NCBI RefSeq assembly: GCF_019464535.1
Contig: NZ_CP080507.1
Span: 4,020,001-4,052,000 of the forward strand
DNA: 32,000 nt
Direction: 5' to 3'
Source of the DNA: Horticoccus luteus
GTDB taxonomy: Bacteria; Verrucomicrobiota; Verrucomicrobiia; Opitutales; Opitutaceae
The notes below the pieces were generated by a model that was given only the letters and a program-made list of their open reading frames with translations, had not been told where the DNA came from and did no database searches. Below, piece by piece: positions 4,822-20,726 of this stretch. Numbering within the stretch: the stretch's first letter is position 1; each line of letters begins with the position of its first letter. Both the position numbers and the translations under genes were made by a program.

Positions 4822-5262
4822 TCACAGATAAAACATTGCTTTGGCCAGAATCACGATCGCGAGCATGAGGACGGCGACGATGCGGTGCGTATAGCGGAAG
4901 CGGCACAAATCCATCGTGCCTTTGAATGAAGCGCGGATCGCGGCAACGAAGATTCCCAGCACCCCGAACGCCAGCACGACTTTGGTCGTCAGCAAAATCC
5001 CGAAACGCGTGTGGAAAAAGTCCGGCTGATTCGCGAACCGCACCCAAAACATCGCCCCGCCCGTCAGAAACAAGAGGCCGACGATCACCGGCATGAAGCC
5101 ACGAACACGCCGCGGAATTTCTGTGGCCAGCAGCTGCGACAATTCCCGCGGGAGCCGTTTCTCCAACGGCTCGATGACCAACACTTCGAAGAACACCGCC
5201 CCGATGAACGTGATCGCGCACAGCAAATGAACAGTAAGGATGATGCCGTAGTAGGAGGCCAT
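4822..5262 (-). CDS. small 4-TM membrane protein, CopD-like/unknown family
   Basis: 146 aa from ATG 5262 (MASYYGIILTVHLLCAITFIGAVFFE...), with four hydrophobic helices. Alternative ATG-ATG start at 5328 adds 22 non-hydrophobic residues. I prefer 5262 because an FNR-like box at 5352-5365 would place a class II transcription start near 5317. The family assignment is weak. Confidence 0.5.
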   Translation of the reverse strand: MASYYGIILTVHLLCAITFIGAVFFEVLVIEPLEKRLPRELSQLLATEIPRRVRGFMPVIVGLLFLTGGAMFWVRFANQPDFFHTRFGILLTTKVVLAFGVLGIFVAAIRASFKGTMDLCRFRYTHRIVAVLMLAIVILAKAMFYL

Positions 5263-5351: not shown

Positions 5352-5365
5352 TTGACCCAAATCAA
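5352..5365. promoter_or_regulatory. FNR/CRP-family box, 9/10 match (TTGACccaaATCAA)
   Basis: Read directly from the sequence. It lies in the gap between the TlpA-like stop (5450) and the CopD-like gene. Confidence 0.45.
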
Positions 5366-5449: not shown

Positions 5450-6013
5450 CTACGACGCCGGAGTGGGTGCCGGCGCCGGTGCGGCAGCGGGCGCCGTTAC
5501 CGAAGCGGCGGGCGCCGCAGCTTCGCGCCGAAACCAATCCGCGGACCACGCTTCATCGGGCACGCCACTGCGCGTGATCATTGTCCCGTCGGTGCCGATG
5601 AAATACGCCCGCGGCAACTCGCCGCGCCACGCGTGGTCCACCGAGTAGCGCAACCGGTCCTCGGACTCTTCGTTAAATTGCCAGAGTTCGGCCGCGCCCG
5701 TCGCGGCGTGACGGAGCAACTGCGCCACCTTTGGTTTCAATTCCGGCGGGTCAGCGGCGATGAGCACCACTTTCACGCGCGGAAACTCCTGTTGCAGGCG
5801 AGCGAGTAGGCCGAGCTCGTGCGCGCAGGGCGCACAAGTCGTGGACCAAAACGCGACGACCACCGGCCGGCCTTTCGCCGCTTCGCGGATTTCCGTGAAG
5901 CTGTGAGAATTAAAAATCCGCAATTCGGGAGCGGCAGCCGCACCGAGAGAAAAGAGCGCGCTGGTCAAAACCAGCGTGGCCCAACGGCAAACCTTTCGCA
6001 GAGCGGCATTCAT
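5450..6013 (-). CDS. TlpA/ResA-like periplasmic thiol:disulfide oxidoreductase
   Basis: 187 aa from ATG 6013 (MNAALRKVCRWATLVLTSALFSLGAAAA = signal/anchor). Thioredoxin motif FWSTTCAPCAHEL and an Ala/Pro-rich C-terminal tail. The start overlaps the upstream stop (ATGA at 6010-6013). The track's longer N-terminus is out of frame inside the upstream gene. Confidence 0.8.
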   Translation of the reverse strand: MNAALRKVCRWATLVLTSALFSLGAAAAPELRIFNSHSFTEIREAAKGRPVVVAFWSTTCAPCAHELGLLARLQQEFPRVKVVLIAADPPELKPKVAQLLRHAATGAAELWQFNEESEDRLRYSVDHAWRGELPRAYFIGTDGTMITRSGVPDEAWSADWFRREAAAPAASVTAPAAAPAPAPTPAS

Positions 6014-7188
6014 GGGAGGGCGACCAACGTCAGTGATTCGTTTTGCGTGTTCCACAGCACATAGAAGTGGCCGGCGAAGGTCAGCACGGCGGGATGACCC
6101 GATGCGCCGGATGTCGAGCCAAGTTCGGACTCGGTCCACGTGCGACCGCCGTCGTTGGAACTCATACTCCGAAGGCGCGTGTGTTGGCCGTCGAACGCCT
6201 TCCACGCCACCGCAACGCGTTTCCCGCTCGCGGCCACGGCGGCATGCTCAGCGGTTTCTCCGCCCACCCGCTGCTGGCCTTCAACCGCACCCGCTCGCAG
6301 CCGGCCATAGAAGACGCCCAGGCTCTGCGGCGCGCCGCTAAACCAGACCGCGTGCCAATCACCGGCCCCGTCTTCCGCGAGTCCCGGGCCATGGTGCGGG
6401 CAGGCATCGATATGCCAGTTGTCGAAGGTCGCCCGCGCCATCTCCGAGACGGTGCCATCCGCGTGCAGCGTGGCGACCGCGTGATCGCGAATATCGGGCG
6501 CAAACACGTGCCGCCACATCGCGCGCACATTGCCATCGGGCTCGGCGACGAGCGCGATCCGGCAGCATTCGCAACTGTGGTCCGCAACTTTGAAGTCTCC
6601 GCGAAACGTGGCGCCTTGATCGTCGGAAACGGCGAAGTAGATCGCGGCGCCGCGATAGGACTTCCCTTCCGCGGCCGCGCGCACGCCGTCGCGCTTGTCG
6701 ATCCACGCCACGAACACCTGGCCTCGGGCGTTGACCGTCAACGCATCGAAGCGATGGGTGATTTCCTGACGGTCGTGATGCACGATGACGGGCGGCGTGA
6801 ACGTCCGGCCGCCATCCAGCGAACGGGAGAATTTCACCTCGCCCGTGTAAGGCTTCGCGAGCGGCTTCGTCCACGTCACGTAAATCTCGCTCTTGGGCCC
6901 GAGCGCGATTTTCGGTCGCGCATCCCCGCCAGCGTCGGTCGTTTCGGGCAGCGGTGTGACCAGCACGGGATTTGACCACGAGCGGCCGAAGTCAGCGGAT
7001 TGCCGCACGGCGATGTGCCCGCTAATCTTCGCGACCACCCAGAGCGCGCCGTGCGCATCAAACGCGGCGTCGGCGCCCAGCTCGGTCTGCGCCGGATTCA
7101 TCGCACCGTGATGATGCATCGGCGCTTCGGCCCCGCGACTGACGGCCACGAGCCCGCAGGCGAGCAATGAGACAAGTAGAGTTCGCAT
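6010..7188 (-). CDS. secreted BNR/sialidase-fold beta-propeller protein with putative metal-binding motifs
   Basis: 392 aa with a signal peptide (MRTLLVSLLACGLVAVSRGA). Four BNR-type S-x-D-x-G-x-T/S-F/W motifs (SADFGRSW, SLDGGRTF, SDDQGATF, SNDGGRTW). MHHHGAM lies right after the signal peptide (7099-7119). HSCECC is at 6562-6579 and CPHH at 6391-6402. Confidence 0.7.
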   Translation of the reverse strand: MRTLLVSLLACGLVAVSRGAEAPMHHHGAMNPAQTELGADAAFDAHGALWVVAKISGHIAVRQSADFGRSWSNPVLVTPLPETTDAGGDARPKIALGPKSEIYVTWTKPLAKPYTGEVKFSRSLDGGRTFTPPVIVHHDRQEITHRFDALTVNARGQVFVAWIDKRDGVRAAAEGKSYRGAAIYFAVSDDQGATFRGDFKVADHSCECCRIALVAEPDGNVRAMWRHVFAPDIRDHAVATLHADGTVSEMARATFDNWHIDACPHHGPGLAEDGAGDWHAVWFSGAPQSLGVFYGRLRAGAVEGQQRVGGETAEHAAVAASGKRVAVAWKAFDGQHTRLRSMSSNDGGRTWTESELGSTSGASGHPAVLTFAGHFYVLWNTQNESLTLVALP

Positions 7189-7287
7189 AGTATTATTTTC
7201 TTATAGTAACCGCTGATTTCCGCTCGTGCGCACCGATTCCGAACCCGAAGACGTTTTCGCCCGGTGAGAGGTGGGGGCCGGTGAAAG

Positions 7288-7371: not shown

Positions 7372-9516
7372 TTACCATTTCACTTCGACCCCGCCATAGG
7401 CCGCGCGTGGCAGTCCCGGGCTGAAAACAGGTGTGCTGGAGGAAACCGAAGCGCTGTCGGCGAAACGCTTGTTTGTGGCGTTCATGAGACGACCAAACAG
7501 CGTGACGCGCCGGTTGAACGCATACGTGGCGCGGAGGTTGAGCAAGTCGTGGCCGGGATATTTGCCATAGGCGGGCGAATTGCTCGCCTCCAGCCAATAC
7601 GCCCCGACACGCACCCACTCGAGCTGCACCATCGCTCCGCCCGCCGGCCGCCAGGTGAGGCGGGTGTTGGCGAGCACGTGCGGGGCGGCTTCGATGTCGT
7701 GGCCGCTGTAATTCGCCGCACTCGTCGCCCAGTTAATATAGCGCTGATTGGAATACGACAGCGCCGTGTCGATCCTTAGTCCCGGCATCAGCGGCCCACC
7801 GAGCCCCGCCTCGACGCCGCGGTGATCGGTGCGGCCGGCGTTGACGTTGACCGTGACGTTGGTGGCGAGATCGCGCTGGCTGACGAGATCGTCGCGCTTC
7901 ACGAGATCGTAGCCGACCAGGTTGTAGGACCACGCGCCCACTTCGCCACGCACGCCGAGCTCGAATTGTCGCGCCTTGATCGGTTGGAGCGCGAGCCCGA
8001 GCCGGGCTTTCTCCTGCGCGTTGGCGGCGCTGCTGTCGTTGCCGGCGCGATAGAGCTGACTCTCGGAGGGGACGCGAAAACCGAAATTATACGACGTATA
8101 AAGATGGAGATGCGGCGTGAGCGTATAAGTAGCGCCCAACTTCGGGCTCGCCCGTGAGAAACTCCGATCGTCCGCGGCGATCTGACCGTAATACTTGGTC
8201 GCGCCGAGGACGTTTGCCGCCACCGTTCCGGACGGCAGGTGGTTGCTCATTGCGAAATCGAGCAGGTCGTAACGCAAGCCGGCGGTGAGGCGAAGGCGGG
8301 CCGTCGGCGAAAACTCCGTATGCACATAAGGCGACAAACTCTGGAACGTCACCCGGTAGTCATAAATCCGCGTGCCGAAACGATAGTCGCTGTAAATTGC
8401 GGTCGCACCGCTGCCGGTTCGCGTGACGAGGAGGTTGTCCTCCTGCCGCGAGCCCGGACTATAGTCAAAATCGATGCCGGCGATCAATCGCGTGCGCCCG
8501 GGAATGAATTTTCGCCGCCACTTCGCCATGAGGCCGTAGGAGACGTTGTGCGTGCGCTCGATTCGGGGGTCGAAGCTGAGGTTGTAGCTGCCGTTCAACT
8601 CCATCGCGTCGTCGCGGAAATAGGGAATGAACGAGAGGAGATTGTCGCCGGCGTGATGCTCGTATTCCGTGGAAATCCGCACCGCGCTCACGTTGCGATA
8701 CGCGATGGGCAGTCGGTTGAGCGTGGGGTTGTGCAAATAGTCGGCCAGCGGGAGCGGGGAATTCGCGCCGGTCTGTTGCGCAATGTGGGACACGGCGACC
8801 AAGGTCTTGAGCGTATCATCGCGCCCCACGGTTTGGTCGAAACGCAGATTCGCGCTCCGACGGTCGTAGGCTGTGCGGTCGCGCCAGCCATCGGTGTGCG
8901 TGGCGTTGAGGTCAGCCTGGAAGGCGCCGCGTTCGCCGAGCGCGCTGCCGCCGCTCGCCAGGCCGCGCCAGCTCCCGAACGAGCCGTATTCACCACTGAG
9001 ATCGCCGTGTGCGTAAGACACGGGCGCGCGCGACAGGACGTTGATGATACCGCCAATCGCGTCGGAACCGTAAAGGGCGGTGCCCGGGCCGCGCACGACC
9101 TCGATGCCGCCGGCCATCGGCAGGTTCACCTCGTAGAGCGCGTTGTGGTTAAAGAAACCCGTCGCGCGAATCGGAATGCCGTCTTCGAGAAAGAGGTAAA
9201 CCGGACTCGTGGTGAACGGCTGACGAATGGCGGTCGTGTGGCCTTCGCCGTTCGTCACGGCGATGGCCACGCCGGGAATCTGGCCGAGAATCTGGCCCGG
9301 GTGCAGCGGGGCGGTCTCGCGCACGCTATCGGCCGACACGGTGCCGATGGACGCTGGCGTTTCCGAAAGCAGAGCCCGTTCGCGGGTGCCCGTGACCGTG
9401 ATCGGATCGAGCGTGGTAACATCGCCGGCAGGCGGCGTATTGGCGGGAGCAGTGGTCTGTGCGAAAGCGGAGACTGCGTTGAAGAGGGCAAGCGGGAGAA
9501 TAATAAAGGTTTTCAT
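7372..9516 (-). CDS. TonB-dependent outer-membrane receptor
   Basis: 714 aa from ATG 9516 (MKTFIILPLALFNAVSAFAQ signal). TonB-box/plug region (DPITVTGTR..., IEVVRGPGTALYGSDAIGGIINV), a long beta-barrel with alternating pattern, and terminal ...GGVEVKW (aromatic C-terminus). Substrate cannot be read from the sequence, and the protein has no Cys. Confidence 0.9.
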   Translation of the reverse strand: MKTFIILPLALFNAVSAFAQTTAPANTPPAGDVTTLDPITVTGTRERALLSETPASIGTVSADSVRETAPLHPGQILGQIPGVAIAVTNGEGHTTAIRQPFTTSPVYLFLEDGIPIRATGFFNHNALYEVNLPMAGGIEVVRGPGTALYGSDAIGGIINVLSRAPVSYAHGDLSGEYGSFGSWRGLASGGSALGERGAFQADLNATHTDGWRDRTAYDRRSANLRFDQTVGRDDTLKTLVAVSHIAQQTGANSPLPLADYLHNPTLNRLPIAYRNVSAVRISTEYEHHAGDNLLSFIPYFRDDAMELNGSYNLSFDPRIERTHNVSYGLMAKWRRKFIPGRTRLIAGIDFDYSPGSRQEDNLLVTRTGSGATAIYSDYRFGTRIYDYRVTFQSLSPYVHTEFSPTARLRLTAGLRYDLLDFAMSNHLPSGTVAANVLGATKYYGQIAADDRSFSRASPKLGATYTLTPHLHLYTSYNFGFRVPSESQLYRAGNDSSAANAQEKARLGLALQPIKARQFELGVRGEVGAWSYNLVGYDLVKRDDLVSQRDLATNVTVNVNAGRTDHRGVEAGLGGPLMPGLRIDTALSYSNQRYINWATSAANYSGHDIEAAPHVLANTRLTWRPAGGAMVQLEWVRVGAYWLEASNSPAYGKYPGHDLLNLRATYAFNRRVTLFGRLMNATNKRFADSASVSSSTPVFSPGLPRAAYGGVEVKW

Positions 9517-9652
9517 AGCGCGGCGAGGGGTCACGCGCGAACACGCGTGAGAGAAGCGTCCAGTCCGCGACCGCGCGCGAATTCAGGACGAGCCGGGACC
9601 GGATCAGGCGCGTCAGGACGCTGCCGGCGGGCTTAACAGGAGGACACGAGAC

Positions 9653-10045
9653 TCACGCCACCGCTCGCGGCGGTGGCAGGGGTGGCGGCATGCGTCCGCG
9701 GCCCACCAAGCCCGGCGGCGCAAGAACGACGCCGAGAGGCCGCCGCGTCGGCGCCATGGGCATGACGGTCGCCGACGGCAGTAGCGTATCGAGCAGCTTC
9801 GCCTTGCCGAGTTCGGTCGTGGGCGGCGTGTTTTTTTCCTGCTGCTCCTTACCTTTTTGCACGACCTTGCAGAGGCTGCACATCTCGCCGGAAAATGTTT
9901 CCTGCGTGGCTGCGGTCAGCGACATGGTCTGGGCATAGCCCGTAAACATGCGCCCCCATGCAATGACCTGCATCAAGTCCCACTGGCAGCCCGTGGCGAA
10001 CAGCCACGCGGCCAGACAGCCATAGACTTGGAGGTGCCGACGCAT
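9653..10045 (-). CDS. small exported Cys-containing protein of unknown function
   Basis: 130 aa from ATG 10045 (MRRHLQVYGCLAAWLFATGC QWDLMQVIAWGRMF...GEMCSLCKVV...); the track start at 10057 is a TTG. High GC3, a possible lipobox (FATGC), a CxxC pair and a Pro-rich tail. I do not recognise the family. Confidence 0.5.
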   Translation of the reverse strand: MRRHLQVYGCLAAWLFATGCQWDLMQVIAWGRMFTGYAQTMSLTAATQETFSGEMCSLCKVVQKGKEQQEKNTPPTTELGKAKLLDTLLPSATVMPMAPTRRPLGVVLAPPGLVGRGRMPPPLPPPRAVA

Positions 10046-10183: not shown

Positions 10184-11032
10184 TCAGGAGCCGACGACCG
10201 CTTTCACCGCGGCGATCACCTCCGGCGTCTTCCAGCCGTTGCCGCGCCAGATCTGGCGCACAGTTCCGTCGGGACCGATCAAGACCGTGCACAAGGTGTG
10301 ATCGAGCGTGAGGCCGTTCCGCTCGGTGAAAACGGCAAACGCCTTCGTCAGCGCCGCGATCTCCGCTGGTGTGCCGGTCGCAAACTGCCAGACCGCGAGA
10401 TCCGCGCCGACGGCCTCCCCGTAAGACTTCAACACCGCGGGCCGGTCAAACGTAGGGTCGAGGGTGATGCTGAGCAGCCGGGCCTGCGCGTGCAGCCGGT
10501 CGTCAGTCAGGATCGCTTTCTGCAATTCGGCAAAACGAAACGCGAGCGCGGGGCAGTATTCCGGCACCGGGCAACGGGTGAAGATAAACGTTACAATTGT
10601 CGCGTGCCCGCGGAGCGCGGCGAGGGAAAGGGGCGCGCCATCTTGGTTGAGAAGAGAAAATTCCGGCATGGCGTCGCCCTCGCGAACGCGACGGCGGGGC
10701 GCCGCTTCGGTCGCAGCAGGAGCGGGCGCACTCGATCCGATCACGACAAAAGCGGTCGCGAACCAATCGTCGCCCGCCGTATGCAGCTCGAAGCGGACGC
10801 GGTCGTCCGCGACCAAACGGGCGGCTTCCGCGGGCCGGGCGACGCGAAACGCCATCGTCATCGCCGGCATCACGCCGGGGATATTGTCGTGGGCGATGCG
10901 AATGTAGCCGTCCGCGTCGATCGCCTGGCGCACCACACCAGTCACGGGGTGAACGCCGTCAGCAGCGGGGGCGCGCACCACGAGTAATCCGGCGAGCGCG
11001 AGGAGCATTGATATAAGCATGCGCGTTGTCAT
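10184..11032 (-). CDS. CusF-like Cu(I)-binding domain fused to a SCO1/SenC copper chaperone domain
   Basis: 282 aa with a signal peptide. The N-terminal domain G..IRIAHDNIPGVMPAMTMAFRV...DDRVRFEL is a CusF_Ec-type Met/His motif. An Ala/Pro linker follows. The C-terminal thioredoxin fold TFIFTRCPVPEYCP...LSITLDP...DHT is Sco-like (Cys pair plus distal His). Confidence 0.85.
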   Translation of the reverse strand: MTTRMLISMLLALAGLLVVRAPAADGVHPVTGVVRQAIDADGYIRIAHDNIPGVMPAMTMAFRVARPAEAARLVADDRVRFELHTAGDDWFATAFVVIGSSAPAPAATEAAPRRRVREGDAMPEFSLLNQDGAPLSLAALRGHATIVTFIFTRCPVPEYCPALAFRFAELQKAILTDDRLHAQARLLSITLDPTFDRPAVLKSYGEAVGADLAVWQFATGTPAEIAALTKAFAVFTERNGLTLDHTLCTVLIGPDGTVRQIWRGNGWKTPEVIAAVKAVVGS

Positions 11033-11067
11033 GAGCGGAAATATATCCGTGTGGGTGCAGCCTGGCC

Positions 11068-11081
11068 TTGATGGACATCAA
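11068..11081. promoter_or_regulatory. perfect FNR/Dnr/NnrR-type box TTGATggacATCAA (box 1)
   Basis: 10/10 match to TTGAT-N4-ATCAA. Its centre at 11074.5 is 42.5 bp from the A of the CusF-Sco ATG (11032). A TATATT hexamer on the minus strand (11045-11040) ends 7 nt before that ATG. Confidence 0.75.
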
Positions 11082-11123
11082 GCAAAGCCCGCAAGGCGGC
11101 GGGATGATAAAAGCTTGGAGCTC

Positions 11124-11137
11124 TTGATACAAATCAA
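11124..11137. promoter_or_regulatory. perfect FNR/Dnr/NnrR-type box TTGATacaaATCAA (box 2)
   Basis: 10/10 match. Its centre at 11130.5 is 46.5 bp upstream of the azurin-like ATG (11177) and 56 bp from box 1. Confidence 0.75.
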
Positions 11138-11176
11138 GGCCTGCGGCCACGAGATCCGATACGGTGGGGCTCTTCT

Positions 11177-11704
11177 ATGAAAAACCACTCCTCCCTTTTT
11201 CTCAGCGGCGCCCTCCTGCTCGCGCTCGGACTGACCGGCTGCGGCCCGTCCGAACGCGCCGCCGACCCCGCTGAAACGGCAGCTGCGGCGACGTCCACTT
11301 CCGATGCCGCCCGGCCCTCGGCAGGTCGCGCGATCGCGATCACCGCGAACGATACGATGAAGTTCAACATGATCGAAATCCACGCCAAGCCCGGCGAGGC
11401 GCTCGCGGTGACGTTGATCAACGAGGGCACCGTGCCGAAGTTTTCGATGGGGCACGACTGGGTGCTCCTAGCGGCCGACACGGACCTCAACGCGTTTGCC
11501 TCCGAGGCGGCGACCGCCGCGGGGACCGACTACATTCCGGCGTCGTTCAAAGACAAGGTGCTGGCCGCGACGAAGCTGCTCGGGCCGAAAGAGTCCGACA
11601 CCGTGCGGTTCTACGCGCCGAAGACGCCGGGCCGGTATCCGTATATCTGCGCCTTTCCCGGCCACATGCAGGTCGGGATGAAGGGTGAATTGATCGTTGA
11701 GTAA
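11177..11704 (+). CDS. azurin-family cupredoxin, predicted lipoprotein
   Basis: 175 aa. Lipobox LGLTGC, then an Ala/Pro/Thr/Ser linker. Azurin-like ligand blocks MGHDWVL and YICAFPGHMQVGMKGELIV (Cys, His, Met; the loop is one residue longer than the classical azurin CTFPGHSALMKG). Confidence 0.85.
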   Translation: MKNHSSLFLSGALLLALGLTGCGPSERAADPAETAAAATSTSDAARPSAGRAIAITANDTMKFNMIEIHAKPGEALAVTLINEGTVPKFSMGHDWVLLAADTDLNAFASEAATAAGTDYIPASFKDKVLAATKLLGPKESDTVRFYAPKTPGRYPYICAFPGHMQVGMKGELIVE

Positions 11705-11726
11705 CGTTTCCGAACCCCGCCAACCC

Positions 11727-13631
11727 ATGAAACTAATCAGCTCCTTACTCGCGCCCGCGGTTGCCGCGGCCGCTCTCGTGGCCCTCCCCGGCTGTAATCC
11801 GCCGGGCAAGTCCGGCGCCGGCGATGCCGGGAAATCCGTTGCGGCCAACTCGGCCGCGGCCCGCACGTGGGTCGCCCCCGGCCAGAAGGATGAGTTTTAT
11901 CTCTTCTATTCCGGCGGGCATTCCGGCCAGGTCTATGTGGCCGGACTCCCGTCCATGCGCCATCTGGCGACGATTCCCGTCTTCGGCCGCTACCCGGGCA
12001 CCGGCTACGGTTACGACGAAGCGTCGAAGGCGATGCTCGGCGACTACACGTGGGGCGACGTGCACCATCCGGGCCTCTCGAAGAAGGACGGACTCTACGA
12101 CGGCCGCTGGCTCTTCGTGAATGATAATGCGAACAACCGCATCGCCCGCATCGATCTCCGCGACTTCAAGACGAAACAGATTCTCGGCCCGATCCCGAAC
12201 TCGATGGGCAACCACGGTTCGTCATTCGTGACCGACAATACCGAATACGTTTTGGTAGCGACGCGCTTCTCCGTGCCGCTGCCGAAGGGCCGCTATGCGG
12301 ATCCGGCCAACTACGAAAAGGAATTTAACGGCATGGTGAGCGGCATCAAAGTCGATCCCACCTCGGGCACGATGAAAGTAGGCTGGCAGATCATCACGCC
12401 GCCCTTCGATTGGGATCTCGGCTCCACGGGCAAGGGCCCGAGCGAAGGCTGGGCTTTCTGGACGTCCTATAACACCGAGATGGCGCACGACAATCTCGAG
12501 GCCAACGCCTCGCAGAAGGACCGCGACTACGCCGCGATCGTGAACTGGAAAGCCGCCGAGGCCGCGGTGAACGCCGGCCAGACCACCATGCTCGATGGCG
12601 TGGCCGTGATCGATCCGGCGAAAACCCCCGGCGTGCTGTATTATCTGCCGGTGCCGAAGTCGCCCCACGGTATCGATGTCGACCCGACCGGCCGCTGGGT
12701 CGTAGCCGCGGGCAAACTGCAGCCCGTCGCCTCGGTCTTCGACTTCGAAAAGCTCCAGGCCGCGATCGCGAAAAAGGATTTCGAATCCGAGTTTCGCGGC
12801 GTGCCGGTGATTCGCTACGATGCCGCACTCGAAGGCGAAGTGCCGGTCGGCCTCGGCCCGCTGCACACGCAATATGACGGCGCGGGCAACGCCTACACGT
12901 CGCTCTTCATCGAATCTGCCGTCGCCAAATGGAAGATGCCGCCCTGGTCCGCGGACGAGCGCGCCGATCTCAACAAGGTCGTGCTCGATAAGATCGCGGT
13001 GCATTACAACATCGGGCATCTCGTTGTCGGCGGCAGCGACACCAAGAAGCCCTACGGCAAGTATCTCGTGGCGATGAACAAGCTCTCGAAGGGCCGCCAT
13101 CTTTCGGTGGGACCATCGCAGCCCGAAGACAGCGAACTCATCGACATCACCGGCAAGAAAATGGAGTTGATCTATGAAGCCTTCACCGAGCCGGAGCCGC
13201 ATTTCGCGCAGATCCTGAAGGCCGATGCGATCAGCCCGATCGAAGTTTATCCGAAGGCGGAAAACGACGATCCCAACGCCGTCTGGGATGCGAAAGACAC
13301 CGGTGCCACCCGCCGCGGGAATGTGGTCGAAGTGAAAATGATCGCGATCCGCAGTCATTTCACGCCCGACCGCATCGACGTGAATGAAGGCGACGAACTT
13401 GTGCTCCATGTCACCAACGTTGAACAGACGCCGGACATGATCCACGGCCTCGGCATCGTCGAACAGAACGTCAACCTCGTGATCGATCCCGGTGAGACGA
13501 AGACCGTCCGGATCAAGATGACGAAGACGGGCGTGTTTCCTTTCTATTGCACCAACTTCTGCTCCGCGCTCCACCAGGAGATGCAGGGCTATCTGGCGGT
13601 GAAACCCGCCGTGGCCGTCGCGACGCAATAA
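11727..13631 (+). CDS. nosZ: nitrous-oxide reductase, clade II (Sec-type, no twin-arginine motif)
   Basis: 634 aa from ATG 11727 (the track start at 11697 is a TTG). CuZ histidines are in DVHHP, GNHGS, SPHG, GPLHT, IGHL and EPH. The CuA site is MIHG...CTNFCSALHQEMQGY. The signal MKLISSLLAPAVAAAALVALPGC has no RR motif. A nosB-type gene lies downstream. Confidence 0.95.
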   Translation: MKLISSLLAPAVAAAALVALPGCNPPGKSGAGDAGKSVAANSAAARTWVAPGQKDEFYLFYSGGHSGQVYVAGLPSMRHLATIPVFGRYPGTGYGYDEASKAMLGDYTWGDVHHPGLSKKDGLYDGRWLFVNDNANNRIARIDLRDFKTKQILGPIPNSMGNHGSSFVTDNTEYVLVATRFSVPLPKGRYADPANYEKEFNGMVSGIKVDPTSGTMKVGWQIITPPFDWDLGSTGKGPSEGWAFWTSYNTEMAHDNLEANASQKDRDYAAIVNWKAAEAAVNAGQTTMLDGVAVIDPAKTPGVLYYLPVPKSPHGIDVDPTGRWVVAAGKLQPVASVFDFEKLQAAIAKKDFESEFRGVPVIRYDAALEGEVPVGLGPLHTQYDGAGNAYTSLFIESAVAKWKMPPWSADERADLNKVVLDKIAVHYNIGHLVVGGSDTKKPYGKYLVAMNKLSKGRHLSVGPSQPEDSELIDITGKKMELIYEAFTEPEPHFAQILKADAISPIEVYPKAENDDPNAVWDAKDTGATRRGNVVEVKMIAIRSHFTPDRIDVNEGDELVLHVTNVEQTPDMIHGLGIVEQNVNLVIDPGETKTVRIKMTKTGVFPFYCTNFCSALHQEMQGYLAVKPAVAVATQ

Positions 13632-18195: not shown

Positions 18196-18630
18196 TCAGT
18201 TTTCCACCTGCGCCTGCACGTCGTGAATGGAGCGGAGCAATTCGTGCAAGGTGGGCCCAAACTGCCGCAACTCGGCGAGATGGATGGCGGACAAGCGTTC
18301 AATGACCTTCTCGCCTTCACGGGTAAGATGCAGTTCCACTTGGCGCCGGTCATGCGAGGAGGGTTCGCGCCGCAAAAGGCGCCGTCGCACCAGCCGGTCG
18401 ACCAGCCCCACAGCGCTGTGATGCCGAAGCTGCAGACGCTCCGCCAGTTCCGCAATGGAAGCGAAGTCGCGACCCGGCACGCCCTTGATCGCCAGCAACG
18501 CTTGATGCTGCTGCGCGGTGAGCCCGGCTTTGCGCGCGGCATCGCGGCTGAAGTTCATGAACTGTCGCAACGTGTGACGAATCGCGGCCAGCGATTCGTA
18601 GTGGGTCTTGGTGAGGCGGAGCGACGACAC
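18196..18630 (-). CDS. MarR-family transcriptional regulator
   Basis: Winged-helix region [14 protein letters not shown]...[50 protein letters not shown]. The start is uncertain: GTG 18630 (144 aa, preferred) or GTG 18660 as in the track. The latter would bury the inverted repeat in coding sequence. Confidence 0.7.
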
Positions 18631-18643
18631 GGCAAGGATTAGA

Positions 18644-18671
18644 ATTGCATTGTATCGCACTACGATGCAAT
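18644..18671. promoter_or_regulatory. inverted repeat ATTGCAT-N14-ATGCAAT in the MarR/ClC divergent region
   Basis: Perfect 7-bp arms in an AT-rich patch 18 nt upstream of the ClC ATG (18689). Plausible MarR operator. Confidence 0.4.
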
Positions 18672-18688
18672 CTTGAAACCTCTATTTT

Positions 18689-20503: not shown

Positions 20504-20726
20504 GCACGCCGGCCGGCGGTGAGCACGCGCTCCCGCCCCGCTTCAGCTGCGCGTGCGGCGCATGGGTTGACGCGCGCTGGACGCGGCGGACGGCGTTTGC
20601 TCGCACGGCAGCGGCGTCGGCGGACGCGCGCTAATTTGTCGGCGGGATTTTTCGGACCTTGATGCAAGTCATGGTTTGCGCAGGCCGTCCGGGAGTAGCC
20701 TTCGAGGCGAACCTCGCCCCGCAACC

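Follow-up and report, generated by a model that had tools for sequence, protein, structure and literature searches.

Organisms that carry the clade II form of nosZ, the gene of nitrous oxide (N2O) reductase, are regarded as important N2O sinks, and the way in which this gene is switched on is poorly known outside Proteobacteria and Campylobacteria. A clade II nosZ is found in a stretch of 32,000 nucleotides of the soil-type verrucomicrobium Horticoccus luteus (contig NZ_CP080507.1, positions 4,020,001 to 4,052,000; hereafter the window; G+C content 65%). Its NosZ is 65-92% identical to NosZ of Verrucomicrobiota, and these relatives place the window in the Opitutaceae. The nos operon is divergent from a copper-related cluster, and the question that this locus raises is how both are turned on from the 144 bp that lie between them. 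We consider it probable that this region carries back-to-back class II promoters served by an activator of Dnr/FNR specificity, yielding a leaderless mRNA for the copper protein and a near-leaderless one for the nos operon.

The two boxes and the promoters predicted around them

The intergenic region (11033-11176) separates the start codons of two genes. The minus-strand gene (10184..11032) encodes a CusF-SCO1/SenC fusion (CusF-Sco) of 282 residues with a signal peptide (Pfam PF11604 and PF02630) and is the first of the copper-related cluster. The plus-strand gene (11177..11704) encodes a cupredoxin lipoprotein of the plastocyanin/azurin family (PF00127, lipobox LTGC) and is the first of the nos operon. 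It is followed on the same strand by nosZ (11697..13631), which belongs to clade II (Sec-type), shows the Pfam nos_propeller and cupredoxin domains and has its likely true start at the ATG in 11727.

The first-pass annotation of this DNA had described two ten-out-of-ten FNR-type boxes in the region, with centres 56 bp apart, and had judged them not due to chance. Direct reading of the sequence agrees. The window contains only two perfect TTGAT-N4-ATCAA palindromes, namely TTGATGGACATCAA at 11068-11081 (box 1, centre 11074.5) and TTGATACAAATCAA at 11124-11137 (box 2, centre 11130.5). In 100 dinucleotide-preserving shuffles of the window, the mean number of perfect boxes was 0.03 and no shuffle (0/100) had two; sites with up to one mismatch number 4 against 0.36 expected. 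Moreover, both palindromes match 12/12 positions of the extended DNR consensus CTTGAT-N4-ATCAAG, for which 0.04 sites are expected at up to one mismatch: box 1 then reads CTTGATGGACATCAAG (11067..11082) and box 2 extends over 11123-11138. The judgement is reinforced by the conservation of the boxes across Verrucomicrobiota loci that is described below. Box 1 is the predicted class II site of the minus-strand CusF-Sco promoter, and box 2 that of the plus-strand cupredoxin-nosZ promoter.

The distances given by the first-pass annotation on both sides of the region were also as it had reported them. The CusF-Sco ATG (11030..11032, minus strand) has its A at 42.5 bp from the centre of box 1, and a candidate -10 hexamer TATATT (11040..11045, minus strand) is followed by 7 nt (TCCGCTC) and then by the ATG; an alternative hexamer, ATATTT, ends 6 nt before it. 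From this geometry, the A at 11032 is the predicted transcription start site (TSS), which would make the mRNA leaderless. The ATG at 11032 is the first possible start of the CusF-Sco open reading frame (ORF) after an upstream in-frame stop. This ATG encodes the genuine N-terminus, since the alignments with homologues include residue 1 and the signal peptides of the homologues start with the same Met and offer no alternative one.

On the other side, the centre of box 2 lies 46.5 bp before the cupredoxin ATG (11177), and the candidate -10 is TACGGT (11160..11165, plus strand), a hexamer with a TAnnnT core placed 11 nt before the ATG and aligned with a TAnnnT at the same position in 10 relatives. 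The cupredoxin-nosZ transcript is predicted to start at 11171..11173 on the plus strand, as both the box centre plus 41.5 and the hexamer end plus 7 give 11172. It would thus carry a pyrimidine-rich leader of 4-6 nt (CUUCU) devoid of a Shine-Dalgarno (SD) sequence. In fact, neither the Sco nor the cupredoxin ATG is preceded by a GGAGG-like element. From the box edge to the -10-like hexamers there are 22-23 bp in the window, whose TSSs are predicted, and 21-22 bp in relatives, the hexamers being downstream. The -35 positions read AAGGCC on the Sco side and AGGCCT on the other, neither of which matches a -35 element, and a consensus scan of 10900-11300 did not find any complete sigma-70 promoter. 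This lack fits activator dependence, although it is not positive evidence for it.

Between the boxes there is an A-rich tract, ATGATAAAAG (11105..11114), about 60-67 bp upstream of the predicted nos TSS; the aligned relatives also show an A-tract, 10-15 bp upstream of box 2. Speculatively, it may be a docking region for the alpha C-terminal domain (alpha-CTD). The same interval contains a small G+C-rich hairpin, CCCGC..GCGGG (11088-11103), flagged as terminator-like on the minus strand and not obviously conserved among the aligned relatives. A scan of the whole window with Rfam returned no family, and thus no riboswitch or small RNA accounts for the region.

Box-to-ATG spacing in related nosZ loci

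The region was compared with a set of 80 nosZ loci (961 kb in total) from Opitutaceae, Chthoniobacterales/Udaeobacter, other Verrucomicrobiota and a few other phyla. About 55 of the 80 loci have Sco and cupredoxin-nosZ in divergent arrangement. The whole set contains 66 perfect boxes, 50 of them within a 450-bp zone at the cupredoxin start (45/75 loci), so that their density is 1.50 per kb upstream of cupredoxin-nosZ vs 0.017 per kb elsewhere, an enrichment of about 87-fold. Two boxes separated by 54-58 bp are found in the nearest Opitutaceae (L002, L003, L004, L010, L014, L015 and L017); of these, L015 is from Opitutaceae D2-102 and has two perfect boxes. When the nearest relatives are aligned, the mean column identity is 42%, and conservation is limited to the boxes, the ATGs and the hexamers, which are of the (c/t)AnAnT or TAnnnT type.

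The distance from the centre of each perfect box to the ATG that heads an ORF of at least 80 residues was then scanned over the set. It peaks at 41.5 bp (24 cases, with 44 within 40.5-43.5 bp) over a background of about one case per offset, and secondary peaks appear at 45.5-47.5 bp (13 cases) and at 61.5 bp (10 cases). These peaks correspond to particular promoters. In Opitutaceae, the distance between box 1 and the Sco ATG is 39.5-44.5 bp, with a mode of 41.5 (19 loci), and that between the orthologue of box 2 and the cupredoxin ATG is 45.5-47.5 bp in 14 loci of the Opitutaceae type, where the TAnnnT hexamer of the cupredoxin promoters ends 10-12 nt before the ATG. The Chthoniobacterales-type loci have a single box, whose distance to the cupredoxin ATG is 40.5-43.5 bp in 27 loci and to the Sco ATG 58.5-63.5 bp in 19 loci. 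Finally, in L023, L027, L051 and L062 (boxes at about 5444, 5363, 3292 and 5460, respectively), one box lies 40.5-43.5 bp from both divergent ATGs, which are about 83 bp apart; this layout is predicted to be a symmetric bidirectional promoter, at which a single activator dimer would give rise to a leaderless mRNA on either side.

The stretch from box to ATG was further analyzed in 59 unique promoters (boxes with up to one mismatch, ORFs of at least 120 residues), all of which have ATG as start codon. Its composition is near background except for A-11 (69%), T-7 (66%) and C-1 (59%). If the A of the ATG is counted as +1, this -10 signature is exactly in register. Consistently, the (c/t)AnAnT hexamer of the relatives ends 5-7 nt, mostly 6, before the Sco ATG. 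In the 45.5-47.5 bp group, the hexamer occupies -18 to -13 (T-18, A-17 and T-13 enriched) and is mostly followed by C-7 and A-6, which places the predicted start 6 nt before the ATG. The class II layout proposed by the first-pass annotation, with one leaderless mRNA and one with a leader of about 5 nt, is thereby supported by the conserved 41.5 and 45.5-47.5 bp spacings and by the register of the -10, although the layout itself stays a prediction.

We also considered that the cupredoxin might be translated from an in-frame, leaderless non-AUG start, since ATT or ATC lies two codons upstream in L002-L004 and L022, and ATG in L010. As a general explanation this candidate was rejected because the offset is 4-5 nt and out of frame in the window, L009, L011 and L079.

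A leaderless output is credible in this phylum. Some Verrucomicrobia are reported to be SD-scarce (PMC10783764), and in Cappable-seq of Akkermansia muciniphila about 10% of the TSSs were leaderless, coinciding with start codons, vs 0.4% in E. coli (PMC4782308). The host of the window appears to be SD-scarce too: almost none of the 25 window genes has an SD sequence (e.g., those starting at 1187, 4275, 18172, 18689 and 27771), and their upstream regions are C/T-rich or A/T-rich. For this very reason, the absence of an SD sequence before Sco and cupredoxin carries little weight, and what argues for a leaderless start is the conserved register of box, -10 and ATG.

According to the mechanism that we propose, the 144-bp region would comprise two divergent activator-dependent promoters, each box binding a dimer of the CRP/FNR family with Dnr/FNR DNA specificity. 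The regulator would be encoded elsewhere in the host genome, and a Dnr-like protein is its likely counterpart beside the nos cluster of many relatives. Each dimer, about 41.5 bp upstream of its own start, would stand in for the missing -35 element (class II activation). Box 1 would drive a leaderless CusF-Sco transcript beginning at the A of the AUG, and box 2 a cupredoxin-nosZ transcript beginning 4-6 nt before the AUG. A common signal, probably low O2 and/or nitric oxide (NO), would in this way turn on both N2O reductase and its copper-delivery protein, and the mRNAs would be translated without SD sequences by direct recognition of the 5'-terminal or near-terminal AUG. Each box lies, in addition, at about -98 from the opposite promoter, which it could modulate.

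Several observations weigh against this mechanism. A cognate regulator could be placed only in the loci of relatives, and none within the window. The segment 11170-11176 around the predicted nos TSS consists of pyrimidines only, and transcripts do not usually start with one. The distance of box 1 is 42.5 and not 41.5 bp, and TATATT ends 7 and not 6 nt before the ATG. The related loci share phylogeny, so their counts are not independent events. Lastly, about 10 loci with the same gene order lack a box at up to one mismatch, and thus other control exists.

We put forward a broader version more tentatively, and it should be taken as rather doubtful. It states that across the Verrucomicrobiota, including abundant soil groups such as Udaeobacter and Chthoniobacterales, N2O reductase would be hard-wired to a Dnr-like sensor through promoters of leaderless mRNAs, and that in some lineages one site located 41.5 bp from both ATGs (83 bp apart) would fire two leaderless transcripts.

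Some relatives have other perfect boxes 41.5-45.5 bp before ATGs (L007 299/366, L017 2329, L003 2269, L017 12142 and L064 13). The additional boxed genes of relatives encode a small cupin, a DUF2249 protein, TonB-dependent receptors of the NosA/OprC-like kind and a protein whose only domain is a cNMP-binding one. They share the leaderless-type geometry and are candidate further targets, suggesting a small regulon that would comprise N2O reductase and copper supply.

The candidate regulator and the alternative explanations

The first-pass annotation had proposed a regulator encoded outside the window. In fact, no CRP/FNR-family gene was found in the window, either with Pfam on all major ORFs or by tblastn with E. 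coli FNR and CRP and 28 verrucomicrobial regulators; nosY is followed here by cysK and not by a regulator. By contrast, about 28 of the 80 loci were shown by tblastn to contain a nos-linked gene of the CRP/FNR family, usually just after nosDFY. The loci with a linked regulator about 4-6 kb downstream of nosZ include L004, L009, L012, L013, L015, L017, L023, L032, L035, L047, L053 and L061-L063, and the regulator adjoins copD in L007 (3004-3783) and L079 (2718-3491). These nos-linked regulators contain cNMP_binding and HTH_Crp_2 domains and a recognition helix, SETLSRTL, with the E-x-x-S-R pattern of FNR and DNR. Their best match in the Protein Data Bank (PDB) is DNR of P. aeruginosa (3dkw, E = 1e-26), and they fall below every curated NCBIfam equivalog cut-off. 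Autoregulation is not supported, since only 3 of the 28 have a nearby box at up to one mismatch and none is in a consistent register.

The first alternative keeps the same promoter geometry and attributes it to a true O2-sensing FNR with an N-terminal [4Fe-4S] cluster, i.e., a global anaerobic switch, instead of a Dnr/NnrR-like sensor of NO or based on haem. The core motif is indeed the canonical FNR box, the lack of a linked regulator in the window leaves room for a global one encoded elsewhere, and FNR and DNR share both the E-x-x-S-R helix and the box (PMC1274295). Nevertheless, the N-terminal Cys-X2-Cys-X5-Cys cluster is absent from 28/28 nos-linked regulators of relatives, whose alignments to E. 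coli FNR do not begin before residue 31-52 (mostly 50) and whose closest solved structure is that of DNR, and both boxes fit the extended DNR consensus at every position. We consider this alternative unlikely. As the regulator of the relatives is Dnr-like and lacks the cysteines of an Fe-S cluster, the term FNR-type should be understood as the name of a DNA motif and not necessarily of an O2-sensing FNR.

A second alternative, which we find quite improbable, is that the boxes are genuine and the mRNAs conventionally leadered. Transcription would then begin farther upstream or downstream, with the boxes acting, for instance, from class I positions or as repressor sites, and the spacing would reflect something other than the TSS. 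Spacings that are not of class II do occur, as the Sco gene at 61.5 bp in the single-box lineages illustrates; the all-pyrimidine segment at the nos TSS of the window and the uninformative absence of SD sequences also leave room for it. However, a TTCAAT-like hexamer is present 6-7 nt upstream of the ATG even in the 61.5-bp group. The 27 bp that separate box and ATG have no room for an alternative promoter, and no -35 or sigma-70 promoter exists elsewhere in the region. Furthermore, A-11 and T-7 occupy exactly the positions expected of a -10 if +1 is the A of the ATG, and the spacing is kept without insertions or deletions in more than 40 loci while the rest of the intergenic region varies in length from 143 to 558 bp.

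It could also be argued that one box suffices, a single dimer driving both promoters, with the second box being redundant, a class III-type helper or a down-regulating site at about -98. Chthoniobacterales-type loci use one box for both genes, the four symmetric loci mentioned above have a box at 40.5-43.5 bp from both ATGs, L011, from Geminisphaera colitermitum TAV2, has one shared box at 41.5 and 45.5 bp, and each box of the window falls near -98 of the other promoter. Nonetheless, the ATGs of the window are 145 bp apart, and thus a single box cannot be at class II distance from both; in addition, both boxes are perfect and are kept with a 54-58 bp spacing in at least 8 Opitutaceae loci. We regard this explanation as very improbable. 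The last one, that the boxes are chance occurrences or repeat remnants with no regulatory role, has only the small size of the motif in its favour and is effectively refuted by the 0.03 expected boxes, the lack of any shuffle reaching two, the 87-fold enrichment and the positional conservation across the phylum.

Neighbouring sites, known systems and biological meaning

Further box-like sites of the window were inspected. A possible third site with one mismatch, TTGATTTGGGTCAAGGC (5352..5365, minus strand), shares the AAGGC flank and lies between the genes of the TlpA-like and CopD-like proteins. It has GATGAT at the -10 position and a predicted TSS at about 5317, which would leave a leader of about 55 nt up to the conserved CopD start M23 (5262); the CopD-like homologues align from residue 21-23. 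This site may be an internal promoter that places copD in the same regulon. Other candidates were rejected. A two-mismatch box at 9963-9976, considered as promoter of the gene at 9653-10045, lies inside coding sequence (WDLMQVI), and there is no box 41.5 bp from the ATG of that gene. The one-mismatch site at 18485-18498 is within the marR coding sequence and is probably a chance match. The two-mismatch box TTGATGCAAGTCAT (20659-20672), just upstream of the gene of the B12-dependent ribonucleotide reductase (nrdJ) and 61.5 bp from its ATG (20727), has no -10 in register and is probably due to chance as well.

The minus-strand copper-related cluster continues after CusF-Sco with a hypothetical protein of 130 residues (9653-10045) without Pfam match, located between Sco and a TonB-dependent receptor (7372-9534). 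The hypothetical protein contains a CxxC motif (MCSLCK) and a proline-rich tail. Next come a BNR-like protein (6010-7188), a thioredoxin/TlpA-like protein and a CopD-like protein (4822-5262 or 5328), all of them, like the receptor, assigned by Pfam. A scan for terminators within the Sco-to-CopD cluster gave nothing above chance. An A/T-rich patch at 7189-7215 (minus strand), with TACTATAAGAAAATAATACT directly before the BNR-like ATG (7188), stands out in the 65% G+C window and may be an internal promoter with a very short leader. On the plus strand, nosZ is followed by the gene of a nosB-like membrane protein and by nosD, nosF and nosY, up to about 17159 (Pfam NosD and ABC_tran). The remaining genes of the window are cysK, marR, a ClC channel gene, nrdJ, sulfatases and a PL8 lyase. 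The divergent marR (GTG 18660) and ClC channel (ATG 18689) starts are only 28 bp apart (18661-18688, A/T-rich); if these starts are correct, the promoters overlap coding sequence or the transcripts are leaderless.

The motif, the target genes and the family of the regulator correspond to what is already known as DNR/FNR control of nos. The palindrome, including the flanking C/G, is the same as that of the DNR/ANR/FNR denitrification promoters of Pseudomonas and beta-proteobacteria (nirS, norC, nosR/nosZ). N2O reductase is likewise a target of the proteobacterial DNR system, and the regulators of the relatives share the DNR fold (3dkw) and the E-x-x-S-R helix. Proteobacterial denitrification promoters under DNR/FNR are typically of class II, with the site near -41.5. 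The DNR consensus CTTGATnnnnATCAAG is established upstream of nir, nor and nos genes in proteobacteria (PMC1274295). Unlike that system, the window belongs to a Verrucomicrobiota host, its clade II cluster has the order cupredoxin-nosZ-nosB-DFY and lacks nosR, and two back-to-back sites serve divergent operons. The start codons of the window are at, or at most 6 nt from, the predicted TSSs, whereas the proteobacterial nos mRNAs are leadered and have an SD sequence. The regulators of the relatives also score below the equivalog cut-offs, as mentioned above.

In Campylobacteria, clade II nosZ has been proposed to be under Crp/Fnr control, and the Nss-type control of Wolinella succinogenes (NssA/B/C) and Nitrosophilus labii resembles our locus in having candidate Crp/Fnr boxes upstream of a clade II nosZ (PMC11539149). 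That study used a looser TTGA-N6-TCAA motif with 2 mismatches allowed, whereas the boxes of the window are perfect, and its nosZ leaders are of 15-37 nt with ribosome-binding sites, whereas the mRNAs of the window are predicted to be leaderless (PMC11539149). The leaderless TSSs of Akkermansia come from the same phylum as the window, from a different class and family, and were not connected to any regulator or to nos (PMC4782308).

Precedents for the individual parts of the mechanism exist elsewhere. At the PRM-cI promoter of phage lambda, RNA polymerase is contacted by an activator bound near -42, and the mRNA is leaderless, with AUG at its very 5' end. Lambda PRM differs in that CI is not a CRP/FNR protein, the setting is a phage and the promoter is single. 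El-Robh and Busby are said to have described in 2002 a single CRP/FNR site that activates divergent E. coli promoters. The single-box loci of Verrucomicrobiota resemble this case, the palindrome serving both directions; the window differs in having one site per promoter and in its outputs, predicted to be leaderless. In promoters with tandem FNR sites such as yfiD, a second site upstream, at about -90 to -100, can modulate the output. Searches of the literature on nos regulation in Verrucomicrobia/Opitutaceae and on FNR-dependent leaderless promoters gave no direct precedent. What is new here is the Verrucomicrobiota clade II lineage, the copper-chaperone gene as divergent partner of the nos operon and the coupling, throughout the phylum, to transcripts that are predicted to be leaderless or nearly so.

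The resulting model is testable throughout the phylum, since it specifies an operator (CTTGAT-N4-ATCAAG), a candidate Dnr-like regulator and exact predicted 5' ends. It would link copper delivery (Sco/CusF and TonB-dependent receptors) to the reductase by co-regulation, and it provides a comparative case of class II activation combined with leaderless translation, usable for the annotation of start codons and regulons in SD-poor Verrucomicrobia. Within the broader and rather doubtful version given above, if the hosts are non-denitrifying N2O consumers, as many of them are thought to be, the Dnr-like protein may sense something other than self-made NO, such as external NO, O2 or N2O. The leaderless design, if true, may make the synthesis of this N2O sink enzyme depend on transcription alone.

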